Shown here: in pieces, positions 1,644-29,388 of the stretch | Layout of the letters: the number at the start of each line of letters is the position of its first letter | Position numbering within the stretch: the first letter of the stretch is position 1 | IMG/VR virus record: IMGVR_UViG_3300009370_000007 | Span: 1 to 64,000 of that record | Direction: 5' to 3' (one strand) | DNA length: 64,000 nt | Source of the DNA: a virus | Made by a program: the position numbers and the translations under genes | Notes under the pieces: generated by a model | What the model was told of the DNA's origin: nothing | Seen by the model: only the letters and a program-made list of their open reading frames with translations | Database searches by the model: none

Positions 1644-2390
1644 TTACTTTACCTTTGCGTATGGTGCCCGCACATCTAAGTCTCCCTTTGCAAGAAGGTC
1701 TGCCGCCTGTGTATGCTGTGCCTTATCTGCATCAATGACAGGCATATCAGCTCGGGGTGGGGCTCCTTTAGGTGGGGTAGATCGTTGAATCTTTTTTAGT
1801 CTCGTTTCTAATTCAACTCGACCACCAATGTTTATTAACCATTGTGTTGCCTTTGCTTTATTATAGAACTTTGAGTTCATGTTCTTTCCAGTAAGAACTG
1901 CATCAACAGCATCTTCTATGGTTGCCTTGAAGATGTTTACATCTCCTCCTGCTGGAGTCCCACGACGCTTGTTACCAAACACGTCTCCCAATGCGCGAAG
2001 CACAGGAACCAGATCACCAATCTTTAACTTGGCCTCAATTCCAGAGATCGTTGCCTTGGGGTCATTGAATATCGTTGCTGCCCAACGATGATGTCCATCA
2101 AGAATTCTTTTATCTTTTGAAACAATGGCTCCAAGGTCGCCGCCTTTGACACCATTGATTGCCATGCCTAACGCCTTGCCGAGATAAACCGAATCTTGCG
2201 ATGCTTTAAGGTTTGTCGCCTTCCAAGTCTTTGGGGTCGCCTGTACAATATCATCCGTCTCATTACCATCCATTTTTCCTTTTCTTGTAAATATCTTTTT
2301 CAATATATCAGTTATTGGATTAGGGAAATATTTTTTATTTATTTCCTTAGTCCGTAGCTCTTCATTTAAATGATGCTTAAAACTTTTCAT
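1644..2390 (-). CDS. Putative internal head protein with ParB/Srx-like domain
   Basis: N-terminal MKSFKHHLNE capsid-targeting-like peptide; IVSKDKRILDGHHRWAA ParB-type motif; own TATAAATA promoter. Confidence 0.7.
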   Translation of the reverse strand: MKSFKHHLNEELRTKEINKKYFPNPITDILKKIFTRKGKMDGNETDDIVQATPKTWKATNLKASQDSVYLGKALGMAINGVKGGDLGAIVSKDKRILDGHHRWAATIFNDPKATISGIEAKLKIGDLVPVLRALGDVFGNKRRGTPAGGDVNIFKATIEDAVDAVLTGKNMNSKFYNKAKATQWLINIGGRVELETRLKKIQRSTPPKGAPPRADMPVIDADKAQHTQAADLLAKGDLDVRAPYAKVK

Positions 2391-2421
2391 GCTATCCCTC
2401 TAAGTAAAGGTTCTACAACAT

Positions 2422-2429
2422 TATTTATA
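2422..2429 (-). promoter_or_regulatory. T4-type late promoter TATAAATA
   Basis: Exact gp55 consensus in the intergenic gap upstream of the ParB-like gene. Confidence 0.75.
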
Positions 2430-2435
2430 TTATAA

Positions 2436-2777
2436 TTAATCCACAATCTTTAATACTGTATCAATCAACCATCCTACCAAACCTGCCAACACAACCACCA
2501 TAGAAAGGATGGTATATACCTTTGATTTGAATTGGTCAAATTCGTGTTTAAGTTCTTCTGTATCCACTCGCTTGGCTTTTAATGTATGCAGATTATTCAG
2601 GCTCTCTCGCATATCAATCACGTCTTGTTTTGTGACCGAGGACATTCCGCTGTTATCAACAATCATTCTCAGGTTCCTAAAGTCATGGCGCAACTCTTTC
2701 AGTTCTTGTTCAAGTGCCCCGAACTCTCTGTCTGTAATAGACCAAGGCCATCTATTTTCCTGTTCTTCTTTTGCCAT
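2436..2777 (-). CDS. Coiled-coil protein with C-terminal transmembrane helix
   Basis: Heptad-like N-terminal part followed by VYTILSMVVVLAGLVGWLI. Confidence 0.65.
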   Translation of the reverse strand: MAKEEQENRWPWSITDREFGALEQELKELRHDFRNLRMIVDNSGMSSVTKQDVIDMRESLNNLHTLKAKRVDTEELKHEFDQFKSKVYTILSMVVVLAGLVGWLIDTVLKIVD

Positions 2778-2784
2778 TGAATTA

Positions 2785-3054
2785 TTACTCTGGGTTGGTT
2801 GGTCGTTGATTCTCTTCTTCTAGAATATCAGAGATTCGTTGCTCGTATGAATCTCCCCATAACTTCCGTTCAAATACCTGTTGCTGGTTCAGTTGTTCTA
2901 CAATAGTAGTCAGCTTGTCCGTGTTCTCATGGGAGTCTTCTGCCCGGAACACCCAATGGGATACACCAACAATAATTCCAATGAACGTCGCTGCCGTAAT
3001 GATGGAAGTCATAATCCGCATCGGGCTAATTTTCAATTCAACTGTCTTTTCCAT
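2785..3054 (-). CDS. Single-TM hypothetical protein
   Basis: Likely start MEKTVELK at 3054 (GAGGA RBS); hydrophobic helix IMTSIITAATFIGIIVGVS. Confidence 0.6.
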   Translation of the reverse strand: MEKTVELKISPMRIMTSIITAATFIGIIVGVSHWVFRAEDSHENTDKLTTIVEQLNQQQVFERKLWGDSYEQRISDILEEENQRPTNPE

Positions 3055-3064
3055 TTTGTCCTCT

Positions 3065-3226
3065 CTATTCATCCACTTCAGATATATGTTTTGCCCAATC
3101 GTCCCCATACTTCTCTTTCAATTCTTTAATAATTTCATGAAGTGCATTTCCCATTTCCTTTGGTGTGACCTCAACATTATCCTCATCGCCATAAATTTCT
3201 TGTAATGGTTGTTTCTTAGTCGTCAT
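3065..3226 (-). CDS. Small hypothetical protein (53 aa)
   Basis: Below the ORF-track cutoff; MTTKKQPLQEIYGDE...EVDE*, GAGGA RBS, fills the operon gap. Confidence 0.5.
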   Translation of the reverse strand: MTTKKQPLQEIYGDEDNVEVTPKEMGNALHEIIKELKEKYGDDWAKHISEVDE

Positions 3227-3383
3227 AATTTAAATCCTCTTCTGTTATTTCTAAAATATCTTCTTCCTCAATACCAAGACCTTCGACCATGCTATCCCTT
3301 ACAAATACCGGAAGATCCTTTTGATCTTGGATTGAACTCTCAATGACTTCATGTGGAAATTTTGATTTAGACTTCTTTCCCAT
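3216..3383 (-). CDS. Small acidic hypothetical protein (55 aa)
   Basis: Below the ORF-track cutoff; MGKKSKSKFPHEVIESS...LNYDD*, overlaps both neighbours as in a coupled operon. Confidence 0.45.
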   Translation of the reverse strand: MGKKSKSKFPHEVIESSIQDQKDLPVFVRDSMVEGLGIEEEDILEITEEDLNYDD

Positions 3384-3624
3384 TTGATAATACATCCATA
3401 ATTGATCTATTAATAGACTCCTTTGTAGTTACTACTTGCTCTACAAATAAAGTTTCGCCATTTCTAATTCTTTTCATATCATTAATGAAATTTTGAGTAA
3501 TCGGTTTTCCATCAGTTCCCTTTTGACTCATTTCGATTTTGGTCTGATCTTCTTCTGTAATGCGTTCTTTATTGACAGGCTCTTCACCCTGCATCATTCT
3601 ATATGTATCGGTCAAACTTGCCAT
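3367..3624 (-). CDS. Hypothetical protein
   Basis: 85-aa ORF with AGGAG RBS, coupled to the upstream stop. Confidence 0.6.
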   Translation of the reverse strand: MASLTDTYRMMQGEEPVNKERITEEDQTKIEMSQKGTDGKPITQNFINDMKRIRNGETLFVEQVVTTKESINRSIMDVLSNGKEV

Positions 3625-3625
3625 A

Positions 3626-4135
3626 TTACTCTTCTCCTATTTCTGGTGGTGTTACTTCTGGTTGTCTCAGTCTAGGTTCTCTACGATTATAATGTTGAGT
3701 TACAATAGAAAGATTTTTTCTGTCATTATTTAATGGATTGTTGTCCTTATGGTGGACATCCTTTCCATTAATTTCATCATTGCTTTTAACCTTCTTCTTC
3801 ATAATCCTTCTTGCCGAGTTTCTCGCAGACCTTCTTTCTATCTGGTCAGGCCGCGAATGATAATTCGCATATTCTCTTTTATAATCTCGCTCTGATAAAT
3901 TCTTTACGCGAGACAGAGTAATCTCATGCTGATGTTCTGGATACATTCCTTCAAGTATCTTAGATCCAGACTCAATGGCTTCATCCTGAGAATCTTCAAA
4001 TACAATAAAGAATCCTTTATATCTCTCATCCTCTTCTGAAAATACATCGAATGCAATCTTCCATGCAGACTCTTGCTTGTTGGATGTTTCTTCTTCTTCT
4101 TGAATATTCTTTATAAGTTGTTTAAATGATTTCAT
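3626..4135 (-). CDS. Putative internal head protein with C-terminal HNH nuclease-like domain
   Basis: MKSFKQLIKNIQE N-terminus; RDYKREY...R..RN.AR...GKDVHHKDNNPLNN...NL motif follows an LSE linker. Confidence 0.7.
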   Translation of the reverse strand: MKSFKQLIKNIQEEEETSNKQESAWKIAFDVFSEEDERYKGFFIVFEDSQDEAIESGSKILEGMYPEHQHEITLSRVKNLSERDYKREYANYHSRPDQIERRSARNSARRIMKKKVKSNDEINGKDVHHKDNNPLNNDRKNLSIVTQHYNRREPRLRQPEVTPPEIGEE

Positions 4136-4746
4136 TAGTTTGGACTCCCTACCATAATCTTCAAATGGTTACTTCCTCCTAGATTGCGCTCATACCATCC
4201 AACGTAATCTGGATACTTCCCGTTTGGATTTGCCCCTACCCATGTTAACTTCTTTCCGGGGAGGAGTTGTCTTACCTTCTCTTCGCTATTGACGTAGGGG
4301 ATCTTGTACTTTTTAATTAAAACATGGGCGATGGCATCGGAGACTTCAGCATAATTTCCCTTTGTTCTCAGTATCTTATTAGTTTTATTTAACATAATCT
4401 TCTTTGCTGCTGCCGATCCATCGGTTGCGCTCCCTGTAAACTTCAGGCCTCCCGGTCCTCCCTTTGCAAACTTGACTGCATCTATCTCAGGATCTTTGTC
4501 AATATCCACAACGAGCCATTGAGTAAAGTCCGAAGGAATATCAGATACTTTATTAAAATCAAGATGTCCACCAATGGGTTCATAGGTCTTCTGGATCAAA
4601 TCAAAAATATCCTTTGTTACGTCGGTGTCTGGATTGTGTAATATATGTAGGGGCGCACGAAACCATTTGCGTTTCGTTCCTTTGGTTATCGTGGGAACAG
4701 ATAGATCGCGCTTCTCTGCGATGAGGTATTGGTTAAAGGATTTCAT
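4135..4746 (-). CDS. Putative internal head protein
   Basis: MKSFNQYLIAE N-terminus, close to the T4 IP targeting peptide MKTYQEFIAE. Confidence 0.7.
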   Translation of the reverse strand: MKSFNQYLIAEKRDLSVPTITKGTKRKWFRAPLHILHNPDTDVTKDIFDLIQKTYEPIGGHLDFNKVSDIPSDFTQWLVVDIDKDPEIDAVKFAKGGPGGLKFTGSATDGSAAAKKIMLNKTNKILRTKGNYAEVSDAIAHVLIKKYKIPYVNSEEKVRQLLPGKKLTWVGANPNGKYPDYVGWYERNLGGSNHLKIMVGSPN

Positions 4747-5426
4747 TTCTTTTTGCTCTTCTCTTTTTGTTTCCTATGGGCATCCCGAGATACCTGCTTT
4801 GGATCATCGGAGATGATGTTCCCAAAGTTGCCTCGGAGCTTTAGAGTATCCTGCATGGATCTTTTTGGACTTGGAAGATTTGCACCAGAGGTCAACTTGG
4901 AAACATACTTCTCTGCTTCTGCCTTGTTTCTCATGGGAGCAGAGATGCTCATCCAGCCTACCCCCCCTAATGCATACCACTTCTTGTCCACAGGATTCTG
5001 GGCAATGATGACGCTGTGTCTTTCTTTGCGTCCGGCCTTGACAGTCTTGAAGGATGCCTTTGTGGTTTCCCCTTTTTTCTGAAGGGCAACCGAATCACCC
5101 TCCACAATGGGTCTTCCCTTCTTCTTCTGGAATGCCACATACTCTTTATAGTATGGATAACTCTTGGGTTCGTTGGCACGTTTCTTTTCTTTGGCTTGCA
5201 ATACAATACATTTAAACCATGCTTCCTGTGACGTGTATACTCCAGCCGCTCCCATCCTCTTGGCAGCACCAGCATCTACGCGAAATTTTCCATTCTCATC
5301 AGCAACTCTTCTCTGAAGTGAAAATCCACGCCTTCCTTGCTTGGCAACCCAATAGACATTGCCGGGTTTTCTCTTCTCCCCAGTAGGCTCTGCCGTTTCA
5401 TTTATATATTGGTTAAATGATTTCAT
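4743..5426 (-). CDS. Putative internal head protein (two basic modules)
   Basis: True start is probably MKSFNQYINE at 5426 (ATGA overlap with the upstream stop); internal IVE|G linker. Confidence 0.7.
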   Translation of the reverse strand: MKSFNQYINETAEPTGEKRKPGNVYWVAKQGRRGFSLQRRVADENGKFRVDAGAAKRMGAAGVYTSQEAWFKCIVLQAKEKKRANEPKSYPYYKEYVAFQKKKGRPIVEGDSVALQKKGETTKASFKTVKAGRKERHSVIIAQNPVDKKWYALGGVGWMSISAPMRNKAEAEKYVSKLTSGANLPSPKRSMQDTLKLRGNFGNIISDDPKQVSRDAHRKQKEKSKKK

Positions 5427-6274
5427 TTTGTCTCCCATACTGTTTCGTCGCGCATCTTCAATGCCTGTAGGGTTCGAGATTTTTTCTCTCCCCCCTTGGG
5501 GTTCCAGATCCGAATCACCAAATCTTTATTATCGTTCTTGCCCCCGGCAACCCAATCCATGATACCCAAAGAAGTTTCATTTCTATCCCACCCTTCGCCT
5601 GTTACTACTTCTTGATGAATGGCATTGTCGGCATCCCAGATTAAGAGCTTCCCTACCTTATCCACGATGAAGCGAGCCTGCTTCCATCTGATCTTTTTTA
5701 AAAACCCTAACGTCTCCCCGGCACTTGGATTCTCCAATCCAGTAATGCTCTCTTTCTTATGGGCACCTTTGTATGGAAGGGAGACGAACAGGGGAACCTT
5801 CTTTTCTTCAAGGCTTTCATTCCTCTTCCTTGAAAACACAAAATGCACCTCGTCACTCTTGTCAAGTTCTCTTGTGTTATATCCATTCTTTCTCGCAAAC
5901 ACCTTTGCAAACCGAGAGTAGAGTTTGGTTCGACTTCCGGCTCCATCCTTTTCTGTCTTGTCGGCAGTAAAGGAAAACAGATTGGGGCTCACCTCTTTGA
6001 CGAATACCTCAAGCAACTTGGCGACTGTTGAAAAGACTCGGACGGCACTCGTCCCCTGTGTTCCGGTGATTCCCATATCGTTACCTGTCTGAGATGCATG
6101 AAATATAATTTCCCAACCAATGCTCACCTTCAATGCCTCAAAGTGATACGTCTGTTTATTGTCCGTGACAAACGAGGCATTCCACACCTTATCCTCAATG
6201 AAGCGATTTCGTTTCCATCGGTATGGCTGGTTGCCTACTTCTTGGAGTTGTATGTATTGCACGAAGGATTTCAT
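5423..6274 (-). CDS. Putative internal head protein (two modules)
   Basis: MKSFVQYIQLQE N-terminus; internal NESLEE|K linker. Confidence 0.7.
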   Translation of the reverse strand: MKSFVQYIQLQEVGNQPYRWKRNRFIEDKVWNASFVTDNKQTYHFEALKVSIGWEIIFHASQTGNDMGITGTQGTSAVRVFSTVAKLLEVFVKEVSPNLFSFTADKTEKDGAGSRTKLYSRFAKVFARKNGYNTRELDKSDEVHFVFSRKRNESLEEKKVPLFVSLPYKGAHKKESITGLENPSAGETLGFLKKIRWKQARFIVDKVGKLLIWDADNAIHQEVVTGEGWDRNETSLGIMDWVAGGKNDNKDLVIRIWNPKGGEKKSRTLQALKMRDETVWETK

Positions 6275-6276
6275 GT

Positions 6277-6756
6277 CTACCTCTCGGTGAAGTCAACCGT
6301 TGCATTTTTCTTCTGCATATCTGCAATGAATTCACCAATAGACTTCTTGTCTGCAAGGGCAGATTTATTGTAACTCTGGATGTCAACCTCAACCTTGTAT
6401 CTCTTGTCTGTCTTGTGCTTGATCTTTGCCTTCTTGAGTTCCTTCACCAAGTCCCTTGCATAGGCCACGCCCCATCGTTGTGAATGGGAATCGCCAATGT
6501 CCATCAACCGTTCCCATACAAATTCTTCGGTATCCTCAGATTGTCGTTTCGCTGCCACAGGATCTTCGTCATAGAAGTATTCGTATACAGCATCGAAGAA
6601 TTGAACATTCCTTCTGTCGGAGAGTTCCGCTCCAGCCATGACTCTTGCATACTCCTTGGGAAACTTGTCGAGGATTGCCTGGAGCTTTGGGTTAATCCCT
6701 CCGAGGAAGTTTATTCTGAGGTCTTCGTTAATGAGATATTGACTAAAGGTTTTCAT
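6277..6756 (-). CDS. Putative internal head protein sharing a domain with the 1244-aa polyprotein
   Basis: True start is probably MKTFSQYLINE at 6756 (GGAGG RBS); the C-terminal GDSHSQRWG...VDFTER domain is paralogous to 10445-10660. Confidence 0.7.
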   Translation of the reverse strand: MKTFSQYLINEDLRINFLGGINPKLQAILDKFPKEYARVMAGAELSDRRNVQFFDAVYEYFYDEDPVAAKRQSEDTEEFVWERLMDIGDSHSQRWGVAYARDLVKELKKAKIKHKTDKRYKVEVDIQSYNKSALADKKSIGEFIADMQKKNATVDFTER

Positions 6757-6758
6757 TA

Positions 6759-7241
6759 CTATATTCCTCCCAACTCTTTCTCTGCGGCAGGATTCACTAC
6801 TTTGGCTTGAATCTTCGCCCACTTCTGAGCTTCTGCCTTGCTCTTGAATCCATTGGAGACGGGCATCCACTTGTTTTTTCCGACATGACCCATTGCATAC
6901 CACTTCTTGTCATGTGGATTCTTCTCTACGATATACTTTGTGCCAGACCATCCTTCTAGCTGAAAGTCGCGTTGGGTCTGTCCCTTATGATGAAGTTTAT
7001 TTACCTCCATATGTTTGAATGCCGCCTTGGCTTCTCTGTCGCCCTTCTTGGCTCTCTTTGCAATTTCCCTAGAAACCAAGTCGCGAGTCTTGGCCCACTT
7101 CTTGTCTGTCTTGACAAGTTTTTGCCCTGACTGTTGAGTGTTGAGCCATACGAACATTGGTTCAAGATCCTTGGTTGTCTGCCGTGCAACGTCTCTAGGA
7201 TTTGACATATCTTCAAGTATGAATTGGTAAAACGATTTCAT
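6759..7241 (-). CDS. Putative internal head protein
   Basis: MKSFYQFILE N-terminus; FQLE|G linker followed by an NP.DKKWYA.G module shared with the 4743-5426 gene. Confidence 0.7.
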   Translation of the reverse strand: MKSFYQFILEDMSNPRDVARQTTKDLEPMFVWLNTQQSGQKLVKTDKKWAKTRDLVSREIAKRAKKGDREAKAAFKHMEVNKLHHKGQTQRDFQLEGWSGTKYIVEKNPHDKKWYAMGHVGKNKWMPVSNGFKSKAEAQKWAKIQAKVVNPAAEKELGGI

Positions 7242-7262
7242 TGATTGTTTCTTTCTTTCTTT

Positions 7263-7604
7263 TTATGGACTATGTGGTGGCTCGCCCTTTTTTAATGAGC
7301 GAAGATCCCTCTTTGCCTGACTATATTCTTTTCTTGCTTTTTTATATTGGCGTCGTAGTTCTCTTCTTTCGTCCACTAAATTCCTTCCATGCATACTATA
7401 TGCAAAAACTCCTTTTCCGCCTTGTTCTCTTGGAGTGAGCAGCGTTTGTATTTCATTCTGTCTTTGTTGTATGTTTGCAATTGAAGTTCTTATGCCTTCT
7501 AGGTTTCTTTCCTTGGCTTCAACCTTCTTTTGTTGAGTTGGGGAAAGTTTTTTCTTTCTGCCAAACAATTCATCAACTTGTTGATACTCTGTAAATGATT
7601 TCAT
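7263..7604 (-). CDS. Putative internal head protein (basic, helical)
   Basis: MKSFTEYQQVDE N-terminus; K/R-rich. Confidence 0.65.
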   Translation of the reverse strand: MKSFTEYQQVDELFGRKKKLSPTQQKKVEAKERNLEGIRTSIANIQQRQNEIQTLLTPREQGGKGVFAYSMHGRNLVDERRELRRQYKKARKEYSQAKRDLRSLKKGEPPHSP

Positions 7605-7609
7605 TGTCC

Positions 7610-10600
7610 TTACTCTCCAATTTCTTCGGTATAATAATCGAGTAATTCCTCTGCAATTGCCTGCTTGGTTTCCTTATTGATCTGCCTAGCCCATCCTGGG
7701 CTGGCGTGTTCTTTCTCATACTTCTTAATTCCATCTTTGACAAGATACATGAATGCCTTGATTGCCTTTAGTCCATCATAGGTTGCATCGCCAACCTTCT
7801 TTGAAAGGTTCTTGATAATGGATGTGGTGCGTTGTCGATAGAGTTGTCCGTCATTGGTGATATAGAGAACGAGTTCCCTGACCGTATTCTGATCGACAGC
7901 TTCTTTTAGATTTACAATATATTCTTCCGATACCTTATGCTTCTTCTTGGCCTTCTGTCCTGCACGATCCGCCTTTGATCTGGAATCTTCTGTTCCCGTA
8001 TCCACTACTGTCTGTTTCCCCTTTCCTCCTTCATGCTCAACCCTCTGAAGAATCCATTTGTATGATCCGTCTTCCTGTTTCATCGTCCGTACCATCAGAA
8101 CACCACCATGTCGTTTGGCTCCTGCGCGTAACTCGTCAATGTTCTCGACTTCTTCATTAACATTAATCTTTGAAGTATCGACGGTGCTACTATAGTTGTC
8201 CACAGGAAGATTATACTTTCTTGCCAGAGTTCCAATAGGAGAAACAGGCAACATGAAATGCTCCTGGGCAGCATCAAGGAATGCAACGACGGCAGCCTTC
8301 CCTGTTAGCCTCATTCGGTTTCCCTTCTTGAGTGTCTTGACAATATCGTTGAGTGCTTCCATGACTTGAACTGCAATGGGAGAACCAATTGGCAATGTCT
8401 TTTCCTTTTTGACTACTGCGGACTGTAGCATGACATAGAGTGTTGCCATTCGTACATCTTCAATATTCTTTGGAAGTCGAACTGCCTCATTGATTGATTC
8501 TAGTTCAACTCCTTCTCCCAGCTCTGTCCAGATTTTTGCAACATCTTTTGGTACTCCACCTCGCTCAAAATTATCATTCTTCTTTAGCCATTTCCTGATG
8601 AGGGGTCCGACATCTGCCTTTGGTCCCTTCCTCTTGCGAAGGGCATCAAACTTGCTAAAAAGTTCATCGTCTCCAAGGATTCCCTTCAATTTTGCCTCGG
8701 CTCCTTCCTTGGATGACTCTGGATCGTTATAGTTGCTCACTCCAACAGGAAAAGGTTTCTTCAAGAGTTTTCGTAACTTCTTGATTGTTGCTGGCTTGTT
8801 AGGAATAGACCATGTGCCTTCTTTGAGTTCGCTCTCCTGGGCAATCTGGGCAGCCAAGGCCTTCTTTCCCTCCTTGGCGGCATACTTGACTACTGCTCGC
8901 TTCAATGCTCGCTGGTCAATTTCTCCACCCTTGACAACTCCTGTGGTGTCGATCTTGCAAAGGGCATCCTTGAATTTCATTCCACCCTTGATTAGCATTG
9001 CAATGGTGGCTCCTAGTTTCTTGTAGTCGGTTCGTTCTTCAAGAGGAGGAAGAATCTCTTCTTTGACCTTCTTTTTCTTTTTTGCGGCCGCGGCGCGCTT
9101 TTGGGAATCTTCTTCCGAGCGCCGCTTTCCCATCCTGAGCAATCGACGCTGTAGGTCTGCCATTACGGCCGGATCGTCTCCGTCTCCACCACGGGGCTTC
9201 CCCTTGTAGGCTCGATTGAATTCCATTTCGTCAATCTCTACTTCTTCTTTGAACCCGAGTGGCTTATAGTATGTATAGACCAATTGTCCAGACTTATCCT
9301 CTACACCAATCGTAAGGGAATCATTCTTGCCATGCTTCTCCAGAAAATCATAGATGATTGCTGGAACCTGAGTGGAAACCATTGCTGGCTTGGACTGTGC
9401 CACTACCTTCTTTCCCTTCAAGGCTACAACAGTATATGGGGGAGTCCCCTTCTTAATGTCGCGGACTCCTTGAACACCGATTTTCTTTTTATAGATGGCT
9501 TCAGGAATGTACTCTTCCTTGACTGCTGCACCCTTCACAATGATCCCTCTCATACCCAGACCCTTGACGTTCTTTAGGAAAGTCTCTGCATCCTTCTTGC
9601 TGGCTAGTGTTGCAACCATGATGCGTCCCTTTTTGGTATAGGAATACTTGACGGTGTACGGATCTGATGCCTGACCGGGACGATTGCCTACCGCAAACTT
9701 CGCCTGCTTGGTTTTGGGTGTGTCTCGATATTCTGTTACAATAGTTTCTTCTCTTACATCACCCTTAATAATCTTTCCACCCATACCGAGTCCCTTGACA
9801 TCTTTAAGGAACTTCTTTGCATCGGCTTCTCCACTAAGGGTTGCCCACATCTTTCGACCTTGCTTGTCATACCAATACTTGACGGTATAGGGATCTTCGG
9901 CTCCTCTTTTCTCTGTGATGATAACAGGAGTCAGGATCGTTGCACCTGTCTTGGGGTCCATTGCTGTTGCATATGGCTTTCCCTTGATCTTGCTCTTGAA
10001 GTCCTTGTGCAGTCTTGCATAGTCCTTCTTGGACATGGTATAGTCATCACCATCCCATCGTCCACCTCTTGCATCGCGATCCTTGGAGGGTTCAAACTTA
10101 CTGCCACGGTGATCTCCTCGATATTTCTTGGCGTGTGACGGTGAGACACCAATGCGTCCCTTGGCCATTTTATGGGCACCACTATCCAGTCCACCTTCGC
10201 GAATTCCTTTTGCTGAAACATTGCCCTTGGCTGAAACTGTCATCTTCTGCAAATTGAAATGTTTCTTTGTTGCGGCAATTCTCTGAGAATGACTGCCTTT
10301 TTGTTTTTCATAGAAGGCCTTGATTTCATCATTGGAAGGAATCCCGCGCAACCGCATATGAGCCAGACGCGCCTTCTCCTTCTCATTTCCCATGCCGCCC
10401 TCATTAACAAATTCCTCAAATCGTTTTTTGCGTCCCATTGCGTCCCTTTCTGAAAAATCAACTCTTCCGTTGTTCTTCTTTATATCTGCGAGTAGATCAC
10501 TAACAGGCATTTCTTTTGCGAGAGATGAACTGTTGTAACTAGTTATATCAAAACTAACATAGTATGCATTGTCCGTCTTATGTTTAACATTTGCCTTCTT

Positions 10601-11344
10601 GAGCTTTTTTATGAGATCCCGTGCATGAATCTTTCCCCACCTCTGGGAATGATGATCTCCTGCATCGAAGTTGACCATGACGGCCTCGTTGATTGCAACT
10701 GGTTTTGCTCCCGGTCCTGATTGAGCCAGAATGACCCATCCAGGTCCTTCGGGTAGTTTATCGCTGACTAGACCCGTTGCTCTCTGTGCAGCCACGGCAC
10801 CATGATTCTTGCCAACCTTTGCGGCACCAATAGATGATGCCCTTTTAGAAACGTGACCGATAACCTTGTGGTATCCCCTCTTGCCTTTGATCTCTGCATA
10901 GACAGGAACCTTTCCCTTGCCTACGTCGGTGGCTTCGTTAATAATCTCGTCTCCCTCGTCATTGGTAGTGATTTGTTTCGATTCTTCCTTGATTGCGAGA
11001 ATTGTCTCATAGGAAGTCTCGCCAGAATTCTTATGGGCAACAACTTCTTTCCCTAATGGGCTGTTAGTTTTATCGCGAATCTCGATGCTATGAGAATCTC
11101 CGAGTCCTGTGCGCTTACGATAATTGGCATCGGGCTCATCTCGGATGTATACGATTTCTTTGCCAGACACTTTGGATAACTGTAGTCGTCTGAGGAGTTC
11201 TCGATATTGCTTTAGAATTTCCGGCGCGTCTGCTCTGAGTTTTCTTTGAATTGCAACAATCTGTTTGGTTGTGGGGTAGTTAATCTGCCCTAAATTTAAA
11301 GGCGCTTCATTCATGCTAATCAAGTTTTGCTTGGTTACTTTCAT
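7610..11344 (-). CDS. 1244-aa multi-module putative capsid-internal polyprotein
   Basis: About 14 acidic linkers ending [ILVM]-x-E separate small basic domains; one module is internally duplicated; downstream of a TATAAATA late promoter. Confidence 0.7.
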   Translation of the reverse strand: MKVTKQNLISMNEAPLNLGQINYPTTKQIVAIQRKLRADAPEILKQYRELLRRLQLSKVSGKEIVYIRDEPDANYRKRTGLGDSHSIEIRDKTNSPLGKEVVAHKNSGETSYETILAIKEESKQITTNDEGDEIINEATDVGKGKVPVYAEIKGKRGYHKVIGHVSKRASSIGAAKVGKNHGAVAAQRATGLVSDKLPEGPGWVILAQSGPGAKPVAINEAVMVNFDAGDHHSQRWGKIHARDLIKKLKKANVKHKTDNAYYVSFDITSYNSSSLAKEMPVSDLLADIKKNNGRVDFSERDAMGRKKRFEEFVNEGGMGNEKEKARLAHMRLRGIPSNDEIKAFYEKQKGSHSQRIAATKKHFNLQKMTVSAKGNVSAKGIREGGLDSGAHKMAKGRIGVSPSHAKKYRGDHRGSKFEPSKDRDARGGRWDGDDYTMSKKDYARLHKDFKSKIKGKPYATAMDPKTGATILTPVIITEKRGAEDPYTVKYWYDKQGRKMWATLSGEADAKKFLKDVKGLGMGGKIIKGDVREETIVTEYRDTPKTKQAKFAVGNRPGQASDPYTVKYSYTKKGRIMVATLASKKDAETFLKNVKGLGMRGIIVKGAAVKEEYIPEAIYKKKIGVQGVRDIKKGTPPYTVVALKGKKVVAQSKPAMVSTQVPAIIYDFLEKHGKNDSLTIGVEDKSGQLVYTYYKPLGFKEEVEIDEMEFNRAYKGKPRGGDGDDPAVMADLQRRLLRMGKRRSEEDSQKRAAAAKKKKKVKEEILPPLEERTDYKKLGATIAMLIKGGMKFKDALCKIDTTGVVKGGEIDQRALKRAVVKYAAKEGKKALAAQIAQESELKEGTWSIPNKPATIKKLRKLLKKPFPVGVSNYNDPESSKEGAEAKLKGILGDDELFSKFDALRKRKGPKADVGPLIRKWLKKNDNFERGGVPKDVAKIWTELGEGVELESINEAVRLPKNIEDVRMATLYVMLQSAVVKKEKTLPIGSPIAVQVMEALNDIVKTLKKGNRMRLTGKAAVVAFLDAAQEHFMLPVSPIGTLARKYNLPVDNYSSTVDTSKINVNEEVENIDELRAGAKRHGGVLMVRTMKQEDGSYKWILQRVEHEGGKGKQTVVDTGTEDSRSKADRAGQKAKKKHKVSEEYIVNLKEAVDQNTVRELVLYITNDGQLYRQRTTSIIKNLSKKVGDATYDGLKAIKAFMYLVKDGIKKYEKEHASPGWARQINKETKQAIAEELLDYYTEEIGE

Positions 11345-11433
11345 TAGGGGTTTCCTTTATTAGAGCGCACAGAATTTTTTTGCGCGAAAAAATTATTTTT
11401 CTTTCATGGTCAGCTATCGACTTGAGGCTCGAT

Positions 11434-11472
11434 GGGGGACCGGGGACCTCAACAATGGTCCCCCGGTCCCCC
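11434..11472. other. Strong GC-rich stem-loop in the 5' leader of the polyprotein operon
   Basis: GGGGGACCGGGGACC-TCAACAAT-GGTCCCCCGGTCCCCC. Confidence 0.7.
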
Positions 11473-11499
11473 CGAACCATTTTAAATATAATCTGTTAC

Positions 11500-11507
11500 T
11501 ATTTATA
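11500..11507 (-). promoter_or_regulatory. T4-type late promoter TATAAATA
   Basis: Exact consensus about 155 bp upstream of the polyprotein ATG. Confidence 0.75.
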
Positions 11508-12112: not shown

Positions 12113-12847
12113 CTATAGGGTTTCTTCTTCTTCTTCTTCTTTGAAATGCTTTCTGTCCAGGGGAGGGAATATGGTAGTTCCTCTAAAATGAACAACCATT
12201 GCATATCTCGATCCTGCAATAACCGGCCTTACTCCATGTCGGGTCCATCCATCCCATACAATTCCATCTCCAATGTTTGTTTTTGTTGCATCTGATATAA
12301 GGGTTTTTTGTTCGCCTTTTTCATTATAGCCAGCAGAGATTATTACCTGGCCTCCAACATACCCCTTGTTTAGTGTAACAGAAAGAGTTGCCACATCGGG
12401 TTGTGGGGAGTATCCTTCTGCAATTGCATATTCATTGTTTTTTTGATCTATGTTATAGTCCATATGCATAATGGCTTCTTCTTTTTCTTTTTCTTTTTCT
12501 TTTTCTTTACTGGGGCTGTATTTACGAATCCATACTGTATCGTTCCATGAATCAAGAGTCTGTACAGGGGAATTTGGAATGAAGTATATATTCAACAATT
12601 GCATTATGTCTTTTAGATAACCATGTAGACGATGATTCATGGCCTTTGGATTCAGGATGGCCTCTGTGATGTAATCAGTAGAGATGTCCACAAGGGATTC
12701 TCTCTCATTCTCTGTATGGTACTGGATTAATTCCCTGGCCAATTCTGGATCATTGAATGAATCTTCAAACATATTGGGAAACGTAATTAGATACGGTGCC
12801 GAATTATGTAGATTTGTTTTAATCTTTTTCTTTTTTGTTGTTGTCAT
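12113..12847 (-). CDS. 2OG-Fe(II) oxygenase superfamily protein (prolyl-4-hydroxylase-like)
   Basis: HMD...TLSVTLN..Y.GG...GDGIVW....RHGVRPV..GSRY motif; likely start MTTTKKK at 12847. Confidence 0.85.
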   Translation of the reverse strand: MTTTKKKKIKTNLHNSAPYLITFPNMFEDSFNDPELARELIQYHTENERESLVDISTDYITEAILNPKAMNHRLHGYLKDIMQLLNIYFIPNSPVQTLDSWNDTVWIRKYSPSKEKEKEKEKEEAIMHMDYNIDQKNNEYAIAEGYSPQPDVATLSVTLNKGYVGGQVIISAGYNEKGEQKTLISDATKTNIGDGIVWDGWTRHGVRPVIAGSRYAMVVHFRGTTIFPPLDRKHFKEEEEEETL

Positions 12848-13550
12848 TTTTCGTTCCTGTTTTGAATGTTCCTGTAAAGTGGGCCAGAAAAACATATCTG
12901 GCACCCTGGGTCACAGGGGCAACTCCATGTAGTGACCATCCATCAATGAGGATGCCATCTCCGGCCTTCATCTTGGGGTTCAGGGTGGTGAACTCATGCT
13001 GAAGGCTCCCGGTTTTTTCTGCATTGAAACCATTGGAAATAACAAATTCCCCTCCCTCATAGTCATCATTCAGGGCAACCGAAAGAGTGGCCATTGTAGG
13101 AACGGAATAGATGCCATCCTCCTCATGGGAATTGAAATCATAGTGAATATCCCCAGGGGCGATTTCATCACCTTTTTCTCGATTTGGATTGGGCTCATAC
13201 TTTGTGATCCAGAAACTATCCCATGTGTCAATTTGATTGATGGGACTGTTGTAGGGCAAGATTTGATTGGCAATGCCCATGAGGGGCATGGCGCATTCTT
13301 GGATCTTGGCAGCAGCAACATTGTTCTCAGAAAACCATGATTCTTTTTTCCCGCTGTCATCAAGGGTGTAGTTGAATCGAATCTCTGTGACAACATCATT
13401 GGTGATGTTGACAGAAGACTTGTTTCTGTTTTCTTCAAGAAAGGCAATGAGCTTTTTGGGAAGATCATCATCTTCAAAATAAGAAAGGAAATTCGGAAGA
13501 CGAATGTAGCGAGGCCCGGAATTATGAATGGAGATGGGAAACTTTTTCAT
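12819..13550 (-). CDS. 2OG-Fe(II) oxygenase superfamily protein
   Basis: HYD...TLSVALNDDYEGGEF...GDGIL....LHGVAPVTQGARY; paralogue of the downstream gene. Confidence 0.88.
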   Translation of the reverse strand: MKKFPISIHNSGPRYIRLPNFLSYFEDDDLPKKLIAFLEENRNKSSVNITNDVVTEIRFNYTLDDSGKKESWFSENNVAAAKIQECAMPLMGIANQILPYNSPINQIDTWDSFWITKYEPNPNREKGDEIAPGDIHYDFNSHEEDGIYSVPTMATLSVALNDDYEGGEFVISNGFNAEKTGSLQHEFTTLNPKMKAGDGILIDGWSLHGVAPVTQGARYVFLAHFTGTFKTGTKNDNNKKEKD

Positions 13551-24915: not shown

Positions 24916-26352
24916 CTAGAGCTTGATTAGAGCCTTTCGATAATAGGCATTGTTGTGTGCCCCGCCGCCTGTAAATGGATTATTAACAAACCCGTAACGA
25001 GTCTTAAATCCAATCTTTGGCTGGAAGGTGTCCTCTCCTACTGCACGCACCATCTGTAGTGGTACATATGGGCAATAGAAAACACCGGCATCATAGGCTG
25101 AAGTGCCCTTATATCCATTAATCGCATATTCATATGTTGGATTAAGTGAAGCATAAGGATCAATATAGACCTTGACACCACCTCCAATAGTTCCTGCAAA
25201 CGTACTGCCATTGACATCGCTGTTCAATGCAGGACTAGGATCAAGAACGCCAGACGTTGACAATGCAGATGCAATGTTGGGTGACACGATTAGCATATTT
25301 CCCTTGCCGCGACGTGTTGCGATACCGATCTTATTGGCTTCCTTCTCGAAGTACCAATTAAGAATCTTGAATCGCTCAACCAACCAACGTGCAGAACCGA
25401 GATCGTCTCGGTGTTCTACTCGCGTTAGGTCAACAAGTCCTGCTGCTGCTGTATTTGCACCAGAACCAACTTGCGCTGCCAGAGCAATCTTACGAACAAC
25501 CTCTCGATTGATCTCAGCATTGATCTCAGTCGAAAGAATGTTGGAAAGCTCGGCTTCGGCATCAAGACCATGAATAGCCTTGAGATCCTGTGCAAGCTCT
25601 GTGGTGTACTCAGCCTTGAGGGCCCGAGTTTGTGCAACAACAGAAGTCTTCTCAATGGTGAATCCCATCTCTGGAATCTGATTAGTTGCCTCAGTTCCCC
25701 AAAGTTCGGCAACCGAAGTCGCTGCACCATTACCAGTAAGAAATGTTCCGTCTGGTTGGGTAATAATATCCGCCAAGCCGTCGCCTGATACAGTTCCATC
25801 AGGATCAGCAGTTGCCGTTAACATGGCTTCCATTGCACCTGTATGGAGCTTGCCATCGGCTGGTACTGGATTATTCTCACCAGAAGTATCATCTGAAGAA
25901 ATACCGGAATATGCGGTATTTGCTTCGTTGAATAGTGCTTCGCCAGTTCCATCGGTCGCGGAACCAGCAACAACCCCCTTTGGAGCATACTTCGCCTTGA
26001 GAGCAAAGATAAGTCCGGTAGGACCATTCATTGGCTGTACGCCACAAATATCATATGCCATGAGATTTGGGGCATTGCGGCGAACGAGACTAATTAGGAC
26101 TGGATCAAAGGCAGCAACATTAGTGCCACCAGCGTTAGTTCCGCCGGTATCCATTCCAGAAAAGTTTGTTGTCTCACCGAGAAGCCCGCCGCCGCTTTGG
26201 GAGGCGTGGTCTTCGCGAAGAGCAACTTCTTCGTTCTCCAATAGTTGTGCTGTGACAGCGCGTCGATAAGGGTCCTTAATTGGATCAAGGTCTTCGTGAT
26301 CTAGTACGGGCTGCCACTTTTGTGTAAGTCGATCAAAATTTGAATCAGACAT
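24916..26352 (-). CDS. 23: Major capsid protein
   Basis: KWQPVLDH, DPVLISLVRR, GVQPMNGPTGLIFA, RALKAEYT.ELAQDLKAIHGLDAE.EL, YCPYVPL, FQPKIGFKTRYG. Confidence 0.99.
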   Translation of the reverse strand: MSDSNFDRLTQKWQPVLDHEDLDPIKDPYRRAVTAQLLENEEVALREDHASQSGGGLLGETTNFSGMDTGGTNAGGTNVAAFDPVLISLVRRNAPNLMAYDICGVQPMNGPTGLIFALKAKYAPKGVVAGSATDGTGEALFNEANTAYSGISSDDTSGENNPVPADGKLHTGAMEAMLTATADPDGTVSGDGLADIITQPDGTFLTGNGAATSVAELWGTEATNQIPEMGFTIEKTSVVAQTRALKAEYTTELAQDLKAIHGLDAEAELSNILSTEINAEINREVVRKIALAAQVGSGANTAAAGLVDLTRVEHRDDLGSARWLVERFKILNWYFEKEANKIGIATRRGKGNMLIVSPNIASALSTSGVLDPSPALNSDVNGSTFAGTIGGGVKVYIDPYASLNPTYEYAINGYKGTSAYDAGVFYCPYVPLQMVRAVGEDTFQPKIGFKTRYGFVNNPFTGGGAHNNAYYRKALIKL

Positions 26353-26396: not shown

Positions 26397-27596
26397 TTAC
26401 TCTTGAATAACATTCTTCTGTGTTCGAGCTAATGCGCCAACATAAGCAGACATTGTGCCGGTGGTTTCTTCAAAGATGCCACCCTCAACTTCCTGCTCCT
26501 CTACAATAAATTGCTGATTAGTTGTTCCTGTCTTGGGGAAGTAGTTTTCCCTGAGTGTGCCAAGAGCATTTGCATACTGCTCGACATCTTCAAAGTCTAC
26601 TCCTTCGGACAGTTCCTTCAACTTCTCATACTCTGTATCGACAAGACCATCAGAACTCTGAATAAGGAGTTCAGTCTTCTGATACTCATTGATCTGCTTC
26701 TGCATATCAATTGTCCTTTCAATACTTTCATTTAGTTCACCCTCTAGCTTATCGACACGATCTGCAAGAGTATCTGCTACATCGAGCTTCTCATCTGGAA
26801 TCTCGATATAATGTTCTGCGAAGAGATTGCGTAGTCCTGTAATGAACTCTTCACTAATCTCTGCCTGTAGACCCTTGGTGATTGCAAGCTCATTTTCCTT
26901 CTGCCATTCATCTACGGCATAGGAAAGATACTCGTCAACCTTCTCGGTCATATCAGTAAGATTTTCTTCGCGAGCTTCGGTTAGCTCTTCGTCAAACTTG
27001 CTTTCAATCTTCTCTAGCTCCTCATTTACCTTGGCAATGAGCGCAGCCTCAAAGATTATTGCTGCCTTTGACTTAAAGTCATCGGAAAGATTAACTTCGT
27101 CGTTAAACATTGCAGCAATATCAGCAGAAAAATCAACATCCTCTGCCTTTAGCCTAGTCTTCTCTCCCTTGTCGCCCTTCTTTCCAGCCTTGACCTTCTT
27201 TGTTACTTCTGTAGTCTTATCTACAGACTTGAAAATCTCGTCTGGATCTGCAACATTGGGATCGTCCTTTGCTTCGTCAAGATCGTCGTCCTCTTCAAGA
27301 GTAGTAAGAGAGTGCATGATCTTATCGAAGTGAGACTCTAGCTTGGTCTTCTTGGTATCCTGAAGCTGATTAAAAATAGCGCGAACCATAGCGGGCTTAG
27401 TCAACGATTCCTTAACCCCCTCTTCTTCATCTTCATCTTCTTCGTCTTCTTCTTCATCATCATCATCCTCAAAAGGTTCTTCGTCTTCTTCAGTTTTCTC
27501 CTGAAGGACTTCTTCTTCTGACTCAGAAGTTTCGCGAAGAAGCTCTTCGATTTCTTCGTCTGTGATGGCTTCTGTTGAAACGGTTTCTTCTGACAT
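26397..27596 (-). CDS. 22: Prohead core scaffold protein with acidic N-terminal extension
   Basis: F..KAAIIFEAAL, KVDEYLSY...EW..EN, FITGLRNLFAEHYIEIP; syntenic position. Confidence 0.93.
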   Translation of the reverse strand: MSEETVSTEAITDEEIEELLRETSESEEEVLQEKTEEDEEPFEDDDDEEEDEEDEDEEEGVKESLTKPAMVRAIFNQLQDTKKTKLESHFDKIMHSLTTLEEDDDLDEAKDDPNVADPDEIFKSVDKTTEVTKKVKAGKKGDKGEKTRLKAEDVDFSADIAAMFNDEVNLSDDFKSKAAIIFEAALIAKVNEELEKIESKFDEELTEAREENLTDMTEKVDEYLSYAVDEWQKENELAITKGLQAEISEEFITGLRNLFAEHYIEIPDEKLDVADTLADRVDKLEGELNESIERTIDMQKQINEYQKTELLIQSSDGLVDTEYEKLKELSEGVDFEDVEQYANALGTLRENYFPKTGTTNQQFIVEEQEVEGGIFEETTGTMSAYVGALARTQKNVIQE

Positions 27597-27655: not shown

Positions 27656-28309
27656 TTACAATTTTGAAAGAAAGTTCTTAAATACCCTTAATTGAACGGC
27701 TTCTCTATCGGCTCGTTTTGATTTTTCAATTTGAGATTTAAGTTCTTGAATGGTTCTTTCTTTAATTATACCATTTTCCCAAATCCATTCTTTTCCTTCC
27801 ATCATTCCTTCAACAAATGCATCGGGAGCAGATGGATCTGCAACAATATCTGCCGCAGTAGCAAGATAAAAATCATCTTGCACTACATTTACGCCTCGTC
27901 GTGGCTTCAATGAACCCATTCCGCGAGACGAAACACCTAACTTGGCACCCTCATCAATAAGATTCTTTGCAATCTTTCCATATGGGGTGTCCATTAACTT
28001 TGCTTTTCCTACCCAGTTATCATTATCTGGGCTTAATTCCTTAATCATATGAGAAACTCTTTCTAGATTAATGACCGGCCCATCGGGATGACCTAGTTCT
28101 CCGAAGGCTCGATTTTGCTTAATATACTTGTCGTTATATTTCGCAACTTCCCTTCCGAGAGTCTCTCGGGGATAGACTCGTCCATTTCTATTCTTTGTTT
28201 CTGCCTGCATGAAGACGCCCTTAATATAATAATCCTTCTTGCCGGATTTAGTTTCTTCTACCAAAACTTCAATTTGATCGTCGTCTACTACTTCGGTAAT
28301 GAGTTTCAT
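27656..28309 (-). CDS. 21: Prohead maturation protease
   Basis: MKLITE, IKGVFMQAE.KNRNGRVY, GELGHP, GVSSRGMGS, DIVADPSAPDAFV. Confidence 0.98.
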   Translation of the reverse strand: MKLITEVVDDDQIEVLVEETKSGKKDYYIKGVFMQAETKNRNGRVYPRETLGREVAKYNDKYIKQNRAFGELGHPDGPVINLERVSHMIKELSPDNDNWVGKAKLMDTPYGKIAKNLIDEGAKLGVSSRGMGSLKPRRGVNVVQDDFYLATAADIVADPSAPDAFVEGMMEGKEWIWENGIIKERTIQELKSQIEKSKRADREAVQLRVFKNFLSKL

Positions 28310-28320
28310 TTGATTTTCTC

Positions 28321-29388
28321 CTAAAAAGATATATTCTTGATTGCAAAGCCTGACATCTTAAGAAATCCTGCTCGATTTTTTGCCAAGGTAGATGCAAACT
28401 TAACTTTGTTTTTTACACTTAACGCATCATATACTTTTGTGACAGCATTTGCAGTCATCATATCTACTAAAAGATGTTTTCCATCAGCCAATTTAACCTT
28501 CTGGCCCTGTGAATCTTTAACAATTTTTCTCATGGTATTGATAATGGCTTCTCCCTTGCCCGCCTGTTCATGGACAGCGACCGATTCTCCTGCTATTGAA
28601 ACTGAATCTGCTGCCTTGTCCAACATATCTTGCTTTTTCTTGTTGGCCTTCTCAGCTTTTCGGACTAAAGTATTTTTCCTAACCTTTTTAATTGCCTGAT
28701 CGACATCTTCCCGAGTCTGTTTATTTTTCAGGGCGGCCAGACGATCTTCAATTGCCTTTTTTTGTGCTGCCTTCTGTTCTTTCTTTTCTATTCTTGCGAG
28801 ACGAGCCTTATCTGTTGGGGAAACTCTTGCCACAAACTTTTTGATTCCTATCTTTCCCCCTTTGATGGCCTTGTCTGCAACATAATCATCTGCCGCAGCC
28901 TCATGAATAAAAGATTCGCCTGTGGCAATTGCTCCTGTTTTTCCTTTTCGTATTGCCTTTTCCTTTTGTTTGTCCCTGACTTCTCTTGCCTTTAATGCTT
29001 TTTTTTGAGCCTTTGCTGCGGCTCTGGTTCGCCATGAACTTCCGGGCTTCATTGCCGCCTTGTGCATTTTTCTGGCAGCAGTTTCAGCCCTATCTTTTGC
29101 CTCTATTCCCTTTATCGTTGTTCCTGCCTTCTTGGCTCTTAGTCCTGAAATTCCCTTTCCCAATGCATAACCGATTGCCAGTCCACCGGGAGTCAGACCA
29201 ACCGCCCTTCTGGCTTTGTTGAGCTTTGCTAATTTGCCAAATTTTCCTGCTGCTGCGACTCCTCCTGCTGCACCCAGGCCTGCAGTTTTTGCTACCTTTC
29301 CTTCAATTACTGGAGTTTCTAAAGCCAACTCAGGATTAGAAGTTGAGCAGATAGATTCGGCTCGAAATTCTTTAAAGGGTTTATTCAT
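28321..29388 (-). CDS. Prohead core / internal protein at the gp68 position with K/A-rich cargo modules
   Basis: Probable start MNKPFKEFRAE at 29388, overlapping the upstream stop; VIE|G, FIHE|A and VHE|Q linkers; synteny with gp21. Confidence 0.65.
   Translation of the reverse strand: MNKPFKEFRAESICSTSNPELALETPVIEGKVAKTAGLGAAGGVAAAGKFGKLAKLNKARRAVGLTPGGLAIGYALGKGISGLRAKKAGTTIKGIEAKDRAETAARKMHKAAMKPGSSWRTRAAAKAQKKALKAREVRDKQKEKAIRKGKTGAIATGESFIHEAAADDYVADKAIKGGKIGIKKFVARVSPTDKARLARIEKKEQKAAQKKAIEDRLAALKNKQTREDVDQAIKKVRKNTLVRKAEKANKKKQDMLDKAADSVSIAGESVAVHEQAGKGEAIINTMRKIVKDSQGQKVKLADGKHLLVDMMTANAVTKVYDALSVKNKVKFASTLAKNRAGFLKMSGFAIKNISF

Follow-up and report, generated by a model that had tools for sequence, protein, structure and literature searches.

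T4 capsid targeting is the standard example of protein delivery by a phage together with its DNA and underlies T4 protein-delivery vectors; to our knowledge the system has been described only in the form of one leader, one protein and one cut. The gene considered here, an open reading frame (ORF) encoding 1244 amino acids (aa) at 7610-11344 on the minus strand of IMGVR_UViG_3300009370_000007, specifies what is termed the polyprotein, a chain of about 14 modules of 60-124 residues each that is likely cut into about 14 small proteins by gp21, the prohead protease of the same phage. The record is a 107-kb IMG/VR viral contig, 59% complete by CheckV, and the window analyzed is its first 64 kb. Portal, prohead protease, scaffold and major capsid protein genes, all in the window, mark this uncultured marine phage as a T4-type myovirus, and its major capsid protein is about 50% identical to cyanophage and pelagiphage counterparts. 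The reading frame had been proposed in a first-pass annotation and is borne out by in-frame TAA TAA four codons 5′ of the ATG and by an AGGA ribosome-binding site. Of the interpretation given there, a polyprotein with gp21-type joints has comparative and structural evidence behind it, but entry into the head by way of an N-terminal capsid-targeting sequence (CTS) does not.

Inside the head, the T4 internal proteins lose their leader to gp21, by which the mature form is freed (PMC9026906, PMC3012670), and genetic work assigns leader positions 4 and 7 to targeting, and 8 and 10 to processing (PMC9026906). The locus resembles that of IPI, IPII, IPIII and Alt in belonging to a T4-type phage with gp20-gp23, in late expression, as judged from its promoter motif, and in its variable content of small proteins, most of them basic, and also in leaders of 9-14 residues that end in hydrophobic-x-Glu (hxE). 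The T4 CTS MKTYQEFIAE and the leader MKSFNQYINE, from the array of genes that follows the polyprotein gene, are in the same register with aromatic residues at 4 and 7, Ile at 8 and Glu at 10. T4 cargo is nevertheless one protein per gene with one cut, whereas here there are about 14 modules per chain, predicted internal cuts, and a leader without aromatics at 4 and 7. Several gp21 cuts per polypeptide do occur inside the T4 prohead in gp22, gp67 and gp68 (PMC9026906), and the polyprotein shares with these the multiple gp21-type sites per chain; the gp22 of the window is the protein densest in the same motif. In contrast, gp22, gp67 and gp68 are acidic scaffolds whose fragments mostly leave the head, and the pieces of the polyprotein are predicted to be folded domains, the majority basic, which have counterparts encoded by stand-alone cargo genes. 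No scaffold PHROG is matched by the polyprotein, and its isoelectric point (pI) of 9.7, with K+R at 19.1% versus D+E at 13.2%, is not that of an acidic coiled-coil composition.

In phiKZ and SPN3US the gp21-related proteases gp175 and gp245, respectively, cut numerous internal head proteins at A-x-E, some precursors at several sites, and in SPN3US all identified cuts besides the self-cleavage of gp245 yield N-terminal propeptides and one mature protein per gene (PMC10052503). Such processing does not yield several different retained proteins from one chain, which is what is proposed for the polyprotein. Closer in architecture are the polyvalent proteins described by Iyer, Burroughs, Anand, de Souza and Aravind in 2017, which have many unrelated domains per polypeptide, predicted travel with the DNA, shuffling, and an explicit analogy to viral polyproteins; their domains are recognizable enzymatic ones, and release, where there is any, is by embedded peptidases (PMC5512222). 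The polyprotein differs in that its modules are tiny and its joints fit a separate prohead protease. Where a polyvalent protein has 2-15 recognizable enzymatic or DNA-binding domains, no Pfam, PHROG or NCBIfam family is matched over the whole 1244 residues at E ≤ 0.1 / 0.01, and no embedded peptidase domain, for instance a zincin-like MPTase, was detected in the polyprotein by sequence search. Full-text literature searching found no paper describing CTS cargo polyproteins.

A hydrophobic-x-Glu stands before every module of the polyprotein, with the Glu proposed as P1 at residues 13, 137, 220, 315, 383, 478, 538, 615, 706, 770, 842, 953, 1071 and 1148, and all 14 linker strings quoted in the first-pass annotation are present at the places given for them. 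In seven linkers the upstream end has another hxE (such as AVKE↓EYIPE↓A and KVSE↓EYIVNLKE↓A, where arrows denote proposed cuts), which might allow the acidic linker peptide to be cut out. The protease placed by that annotation at 27656-28309 (minus strand) is indeed of gp21 type, matching phrog_207 (E 7e-81) and the T4 gp21 structure 5JBL (E 4e-19), and it has His and Ser at two positions where the crystallized T4 chain has Ala. We take those alanines to be engineered catalytic-site mutations. In the major capsid protein gp23 (24916-26352; phrog_138) an L-G-E↓T aligns with the T4 maturation site L-T-E↓A, right after which the deposited mature T4 chains start; given this and the likeness of the protease to gp21, a cut after hydrophobic-x-Glu is expected in this phage. 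The phage thus has both the gp21-type protease and the gp22 scaffold that go with T4-type CTS cargo.

The strongest evidence for the joints comes from relatives, gathered by a scan of 1.84 billion representative proteins at E ≤ 0.001. The 328 proteins that match, 57-1083 residues in length, each cover one or a few modules, in differing positions and orders. Only one related protein is of similar length, P0003 with 1300 residues; it is 92% identical overall and differs by one whole extra module of about 56 residues in the first linker (around residue 131, between NDEG and DEIINE), the rest being almost identical. Of 203 N-terminal ends of BLAST alignments, 78 fall no more than 5 residues from a proposed cut as against 12.4% expected, the alignments not being mutually independent. 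When each relative is extrapolated to the first residue of the module and [LIVMFY]-x-E is required exactly at P3-P1, 66 of 108 internal junctions of the relatives have it (24 of 64 without the abundant module 11), and the per-position background of the same motif in the same relatives is 2.8%. The boundary hxE is conserved in relatives for modules 1, 2, 4, 8, 9, 11, 12 and 14.

Some relatives have a module directly behind a leader of no more than 20 residues, and in 25 of 31 such cases the leader ends in hxE with the first residue of the module as in the polyprotein. Thus the stand-alone MKTFRQHIDE↓ATSVGKGK corresponds to EIINE↓ATDVGKGK of the polyprotein, MKFREYLNE↓AVRLP to ESINE↓AVRLP, and MKLFTELKE↓AVD to NLKE↓AVD. 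As the leader hxE and the module align at the same residue, the stand-alone and the chained forms predict the same mature N-terminus. The search proposed in the first-pass annotation, module by module with HMMs, for modules existing elsewhere as stand-alone leader-bearing genes has accordingly a positive outcome. Comparison of sequences gives good support to the view that the modules are independent evolutionary units and that their joints keep a hydrophobic-x-Glu matching the specificity expected of a T4-type gp21.

Module 11 provides the largest sample. With the whole polyprotein as query no relative was found in IMG/VR; the matches came with the module 11 alignment, a search with which found the module encoded at 368 IMG/VR loci, and the boundary was examined in 80 of these that were fetched. 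Directly ahead of G(T/S)W, [LIVMFY]-x-E is present in 46 of 48 representative proteins, and ahead of G(T/S/V)W an x-E is invariant across the 80 fetched loci, P3 being [LIVMFY] in 78 of them and the two exceptions (L076 and L079) having A-S-E. The loci encode proteins of 250-1366 residues, many of which are chains with EEVELDE-type joints. Five large records with module 11, all of them fragments, were probed for head genes; a T4-type capsid gene is present in two and a T4-type protease in one. Another, locus L005, has T4-type replication genes together with two chains of this kind.

Statistics on the polyprotein itself point the same way where the acidic context is taken into account. Inside acidic patches [LIVM]-x-E occurs 10 times versus 3.5±1.8 in shuffles (p = 0.002). 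A position matrix was trained solely on the 64 unique 10-mers upstream of the junctions in relatives, in which P3 is L, V or I in 58 and P4-P7 are Glu-rich, and was then used to scan the polyprotein. Scores above the 99.9% shuffle quantile fall at eight positions versus 1.2 expected, among them junctions 706 and 1071, whose modules are absent from the training set; junctions 220, 538, 770, 478 and 13 are above the 99% quantile. Compared over the 66 long ORFs of the genome, the density of junction-type sites is 6.4 per 1000 aa in the polyprotein and 1.15 in the remaining ORFs (Poisson P = 1.3e-4). The densest in the genome, with 17.5 per 1000 aa, is the gp22 scaffold. T4 gp22 is the classic multi-cut substrate of gp21. 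A matrix made instead from 31 leaders, to see whether the linkers are remnants of N-terminal leaders, gave only 2 positions above the 99.9% quantile versus 1.2 expected; as it did not single out the linkers, such an origin was dropped as evidence.

The position of the motif relative to folded domains was considered with AlphaFold (AF2) models of modules 11 and 14, each with its upstream linker and using per-module alignments. For module 11 the 15 linker residues have predicted local distance difference test (pLDDT) values below 50 and the helical core has 78-91; for module 14 the 20 residues to just past Glu1148 are at 50-56, and from two residues after the cut the values are 93-98. In both models the proposed cut is at the edge of the fold and outside it, and for these two of the 14 modules, the ones that were modeled, the expectation in the first-pass annotation that linkers coincide with domain boundaries stands. 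This bears on the distinctly improbable alternative that the product is an uncut multi-domain virion or ejection protein, in which the acidic hxE linkers are flexible spacers or the leader relics of fused genes. Giant uncut virion proteins do exist, the N4 virion RNA polymerase being one cited in PMC5512222, and with several sites weak and the leader-derived matrix not picking out the linkers, an uncut protein has something in its favor. Relics, though, would be expected to erode, and the motif persists at junctions of relatives where the upstream sequence is unrelated; it lies exactly at the fold boundary in the models of modules 11 and 14; and an intact protease with the corresponding specificity is encoded by the phage itself.

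Several observations nevertheless weigh against serial cutting of a packaged chain. Plain [LIVM]-x-E is found 26 times in the polyprotein and 19.7±3.8 times in shuffles (p = 0.07), which is not above chance, although the enrichment of acidic patches over shuffled sequence that the first-pass annotation made a check of its proposal is present. Junctions 137, 383 and 615 are under the 99% quantile with junction-matrix scores below zero, and joints 383 and 615 are counted as weak (matrix score only). Joint 770 is unsupported in that module 10 has no relatives at its N-terminus and so no comparative evidence applies there. The gp22 score is inflated, being partly an effect of composition, as this protein is very acidic. 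Distant relatives of module 14 lie inside proteins of 700-930 residues without a cut site. The x-E before GTW is kept even in records with no detected T4-type protease, all of these being fragments, and the Glu, which all 80 fetched loci keep, could therefore belong to the module 11 domain itself. A tblastn search of 50,697 GenBank phage records gave no match for the whole polyprotein, module 11 or module 14, and so no cultured relative. Finally, the polyprotein leader MKVTKQNLISMNE (13 residues ending M-N-E; 11306-11344, minus strand) has Thr4, Asn7, Leu8 and Glu13 and no aromatics at 4 and 7, and is a degenerate capsid-targeting-like peptide.

By the pattern of T4-type CTS leaders (aromatic at 4 and 7, hydrophobic at 8, Glu at 10) MKVTKQNLISMNE does not qualify, keeping in mind that a rule taken from T4 may not transfer exactly. 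Targeting of the whole chain in a single event by an N-terminal CTS, as had been put forward in the first-pass annotation, is consequently unsupported, and here the polyprotein is unlike the eight genes that follow it. These are stand-alone genes with MKSF or MKTF leaders at 1644-7604 (minus strand), directly 3′ of the polyprotein gene, in agreement with the earlier description of that gene as the head of an operon of MKSF type. Gaps between the array genes from 7604 down to 3626 are of 2-21 nt or the genes overlap, and no other MKSF or MKTF N-terminus occurs in the 107-kb record. All eight leaders have Phe4, position 7 is mostly Tyr, Phe or Leu, and hydrophobic-x-Glu falls within residues 9-13. 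The related chains P0006, P0009, P0025 and P0026 open with MK(S/T)F, and in relatives P0005 and P0023 MKFDKSYFKELLNE stands ahead of the same module, module 1, that follows MKVTKQNLISMNE. The polyprotein could enter the prohead through its divergent leader, its linkers, or an affinity of its modules for the core. It is very improbable, despite the atypical N-terminal leader, that the polyprotein is an unpackaged cytoplasmic late protein with its hxE junctions serving another protease or none: the gene heads an array of eight canonical T4-like leader genes under a late promoter, modules of the polyprotein are elsewhere found directly behind such leaders, and relatives of module 11 are in proteins whose N-terminal domain matches a virion-structural PHROG.

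Within the array, the MKSF-leader gene at 3626-4135 (minus strand) has a C-terminal match to HNH_3 (E 7.8e-5; 22.7 bits, just under the Pfam cut-off of 24.8), and its product may be a packaged nuclease-like cargo. Beyond the leaders of the MK(S/T)F kind there is a second leader family, M(S/T)(R/K)Y(A/G)x(P/T)MSQ(A/T)LAE, which heads many long lysine-rich GTW-bearing chains with EEVELDE-type joints (L003, L004, L008-L010, L041, L051, P0053, P0057 and P0119). Several other GTW-bearing proteins have an N-terminal domain that matches phrog_13484, annotated as a virion structural protein.

Taking the modules in order, all on the minus strand, module 1 (residues 14-137; 10934-11305) includes a 17-residue linker remnant at 121-137, homology stopping at residue 121, and in P0007, P0009 and P0018 it is internal and behind acidic linkers ending in E. 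The basic module 2 (residues 138-220; 10685-10933; pI 10.1) has the hxE site in 11 of 13 relatives and exists as stand-alone leader-plus-module genes in P0010, P0029, P0052 and P0060, with an identical first residue after the Glu. Module 3 (residues 221-315; 10400-10684) has 54-57% identity to the C-terminal half of the MKTF gene of the same genome at 6277-6756. Module 4 (residues 316-383; 10196-10399) starts with GGMG and has a junction score of 11.5; in 5 of 5 relatives hxE is exactly ahead of GGMG or SGMG. At module 5 (residues 384-478; 9911-10195) the relatives P0019 and P0020 diverge right after GIRE, and its C-terminal part is common to P0005 and P0006, where it ends VVLEE or VVLE. Modules 6 and 7 (residues 479-538 and 539-615; 9500-9910) are tandem paralogues with 58% identity over 57 residues, an acidic hxE linker closing each copy, so that the description of the modules as unrelated, in the first-pass annotation, is not quite right for this pair. 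Module 8 (residues 616-706; 9227-9499) has hxE exactly at the boundary in 5 of 6 internal junctions of relatives, for example VELDE↓AIW and DVNE↓AIW.

Modules 9 and 10 (residues 707-770 and 771-842; 8819-9226) begin with a junction score of 11.7 at residue 706, and module 9 is also present in P0005 behind EEVEDIDE↓. The ‘GTW’ helical domain, module 11 (residues 843-953; 8486-8818), with hxE before G(T/S)W in relatives, is followed by module 12 (residues 954-1071; 8132-8485), for which the site is within 3 residues in 13 of 20 relatives; the mature part of the stand-alone gene P0042 (MKFREYLNE↓AVRLP...) begins at the same residue as module 12. Module 13 (residues 1072-1148; 7901-8131) has few relatives and, outside the training set, a junction score of 11.1 at residue 1071. 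The last, module 14 (residues 1149-1244; 7613-7900), is a predicted four-helix domain that ends EEIGE and has stand-alone leader-plus-module relatives (P0015-17, P0034 and P0048).

What the released proteins would do is a separate matter from whether they are released. It is conceivable, though on balance unlikely, that gp21 does cut the chain and that the products are basic DNA-associated filler or helpers of core assembly, with roles such as neutralizing charge or supporting head size or the scaffold, as has been suggested for T4 IPIII, or are expelled like scaffold fragments. Eleven of the 14 predicted products have a pI of 9.25-10.4, modules 1, 12 and 14 being at 7.0, 8.2 and 6.9, so that the earlier characterization of the modules as K/R-rich fits those eleven and not these three. 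The basicity of the eleven speaks for filler, and the T4 IP proteins are themselves basic, are found in some 300 copies apiece and are believed to be in contact with DNA, with loss of IPIII slowing head assembly (PMC9026906). No module matches an enzyme or inhibitor family, which leaves the anti-defense or host-takeover role suggested in the first-pass annotation unsupported; nor do the modeled modules match a solved fold: models of 11 and 14 gave no significant solved-structure match, the best Foldseek E being 0.8-1.7 and the best VIA-align Z 6.0, for a helical bundle. In BFVD the module 14 model matches uncharacterized viral proteins only, and ESM Atlas gave unnamed viral clusters only (score 0.81, within noise). 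Fast turnover and shuffling of modules among relatives, in contrast, fit conflict-driven cargo better than a structural role, and the folded products of 7-14 kDa are sized like T4 IPI* and IPII*, which remain in the head. Related chains also bear real enzyme domains, cytidylyltransferase-like and Zeta-toxin/AAA_33 kinase-like, and for the class as a whole this favors cargo over filler; it says nothing direct on the 14 modules here.

In one of these chains, the 1023-residue L005:882-3953 (plus strand), it is a cytidylyltransferase-like (NMNAT-type) domain without a leader that opens the protein, and likewise in P0007 and P0032. About 340 residues in, these chains have an in-frame MKKFSQL or MKTLSES leader-like motif with cargo modules after it, which means either that enzyme and cargo are truly fused or that there is an internal start. 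The Zeta-toxin/AAA_33 kinase-like P-loop domain is directly behind a 12-residue leader, ending L-H-E or I-V-E, in P0044 (996 aa) and P0045 (930 aa), both of which also contain module 12.

The first-pass annotation also placed a late promoter before the gene, and there is a T4-type late promoter box, TATAAATA, at 11500-11507 (minus strand), 155 nt 5′ of the ATG. All six minus-strand copies of TATAAATA in the window are just 5′ of gene starts; its count on both strands of the window, 7 versus 4.0±2.0 expected, is not significant by itself. Going by this motif, the polyprotein gene would be transcribed late, as are the genes of T4-type CTS cargo. Between TATAAATA and the ribosome-binding site, in the 5′ leader of the mRNA, is a strong GC-rich hairpin (11426-11478, minus strand). 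The 161-nt 5′ leader has a minimum free energy of -57.4 kcal/mol (z = -4.9 versus shuffles), and no U tract is 3′ of the hairpin, which could be a stabilizer or regulator of a long late transcript. Further 5′, beyond the non-coding stretch of about 770 bp that precedes the promoter, are two tandem 2OG-Fe(II) oxygenase-like genes (phrog_61; 12113-13550, minus strand).

Among the head genes, the gp22-type scaffold (26397-27596, minus strand; 399 residues; phrog_237 E 1e-65) has almost purely acidic residues over its N-terminal 60 or so and seven junction-type sites, and it is the probable docking partner of the polyprotein. The portal gene, for gp20, is at 34934-36679 (phrog_213 E 3e-207). Between the protease gene and the portal gene, where T4 has its small core genes 67 and 68, there are, just 5′ of the protease gene, two ORFs of 378 and 300 residues (28321-30283, minus strand) with no PHROG or NCBIfam match; they could be divergent prohead core proteins.

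For the chain we infer prohead entry, cutting, retention, ejection and any effector role. It would most likely be made late and built into the prohead core along with the eight downstream leader-bearing cargo proteins; gp21 would then cut most joints, at both linker ends in about half, and the released 7-14 kDa proteins would remain beside the DNA in the head, like T4 IPI*, IPII* and IPIII*, and probably exit with it at infection. Over evolution, whole modules appear to have been fused in frame, duplicated, inserted or lost at the joints, and the chain to have lengthened and changed in this way. A wider possibility, for and against which the odds seem evenly balanced, is that uncultured T4-type phages, jumbo phages included, have a general plug-in cargo system, where the protease motif is both release site and recombination joint, and a single gene supplies swappable small proteins and enzymes that are loaded into the head in a fixed ratio and then delivered along with the DNA. 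The 14-module chain would be among the longest examples made entirely of small modules, and the pool of modules, to judge from the 328 proteins and from the 368 IMG/VR loci for module 11, would be large and absent from cultured phages.

If such a natural polyprotein version of T4 cargo exists, a single gene can fill the head with a dozen distinct proteins at a set ratio, the head protease has a second role in polyprotein processing, comparable to what is found in RNA viruses, and the motif that is cut is also the joint where evolution swaps cargo. The linker sequences are then on offer, ready-made, for multi-cargo packaging in engineered T4 heads. From the perspective of phage biology, a large pool of small putative virion-cargo domains in marine phages is exposed, and these are natural candidates for anti-defense or takeover factors.

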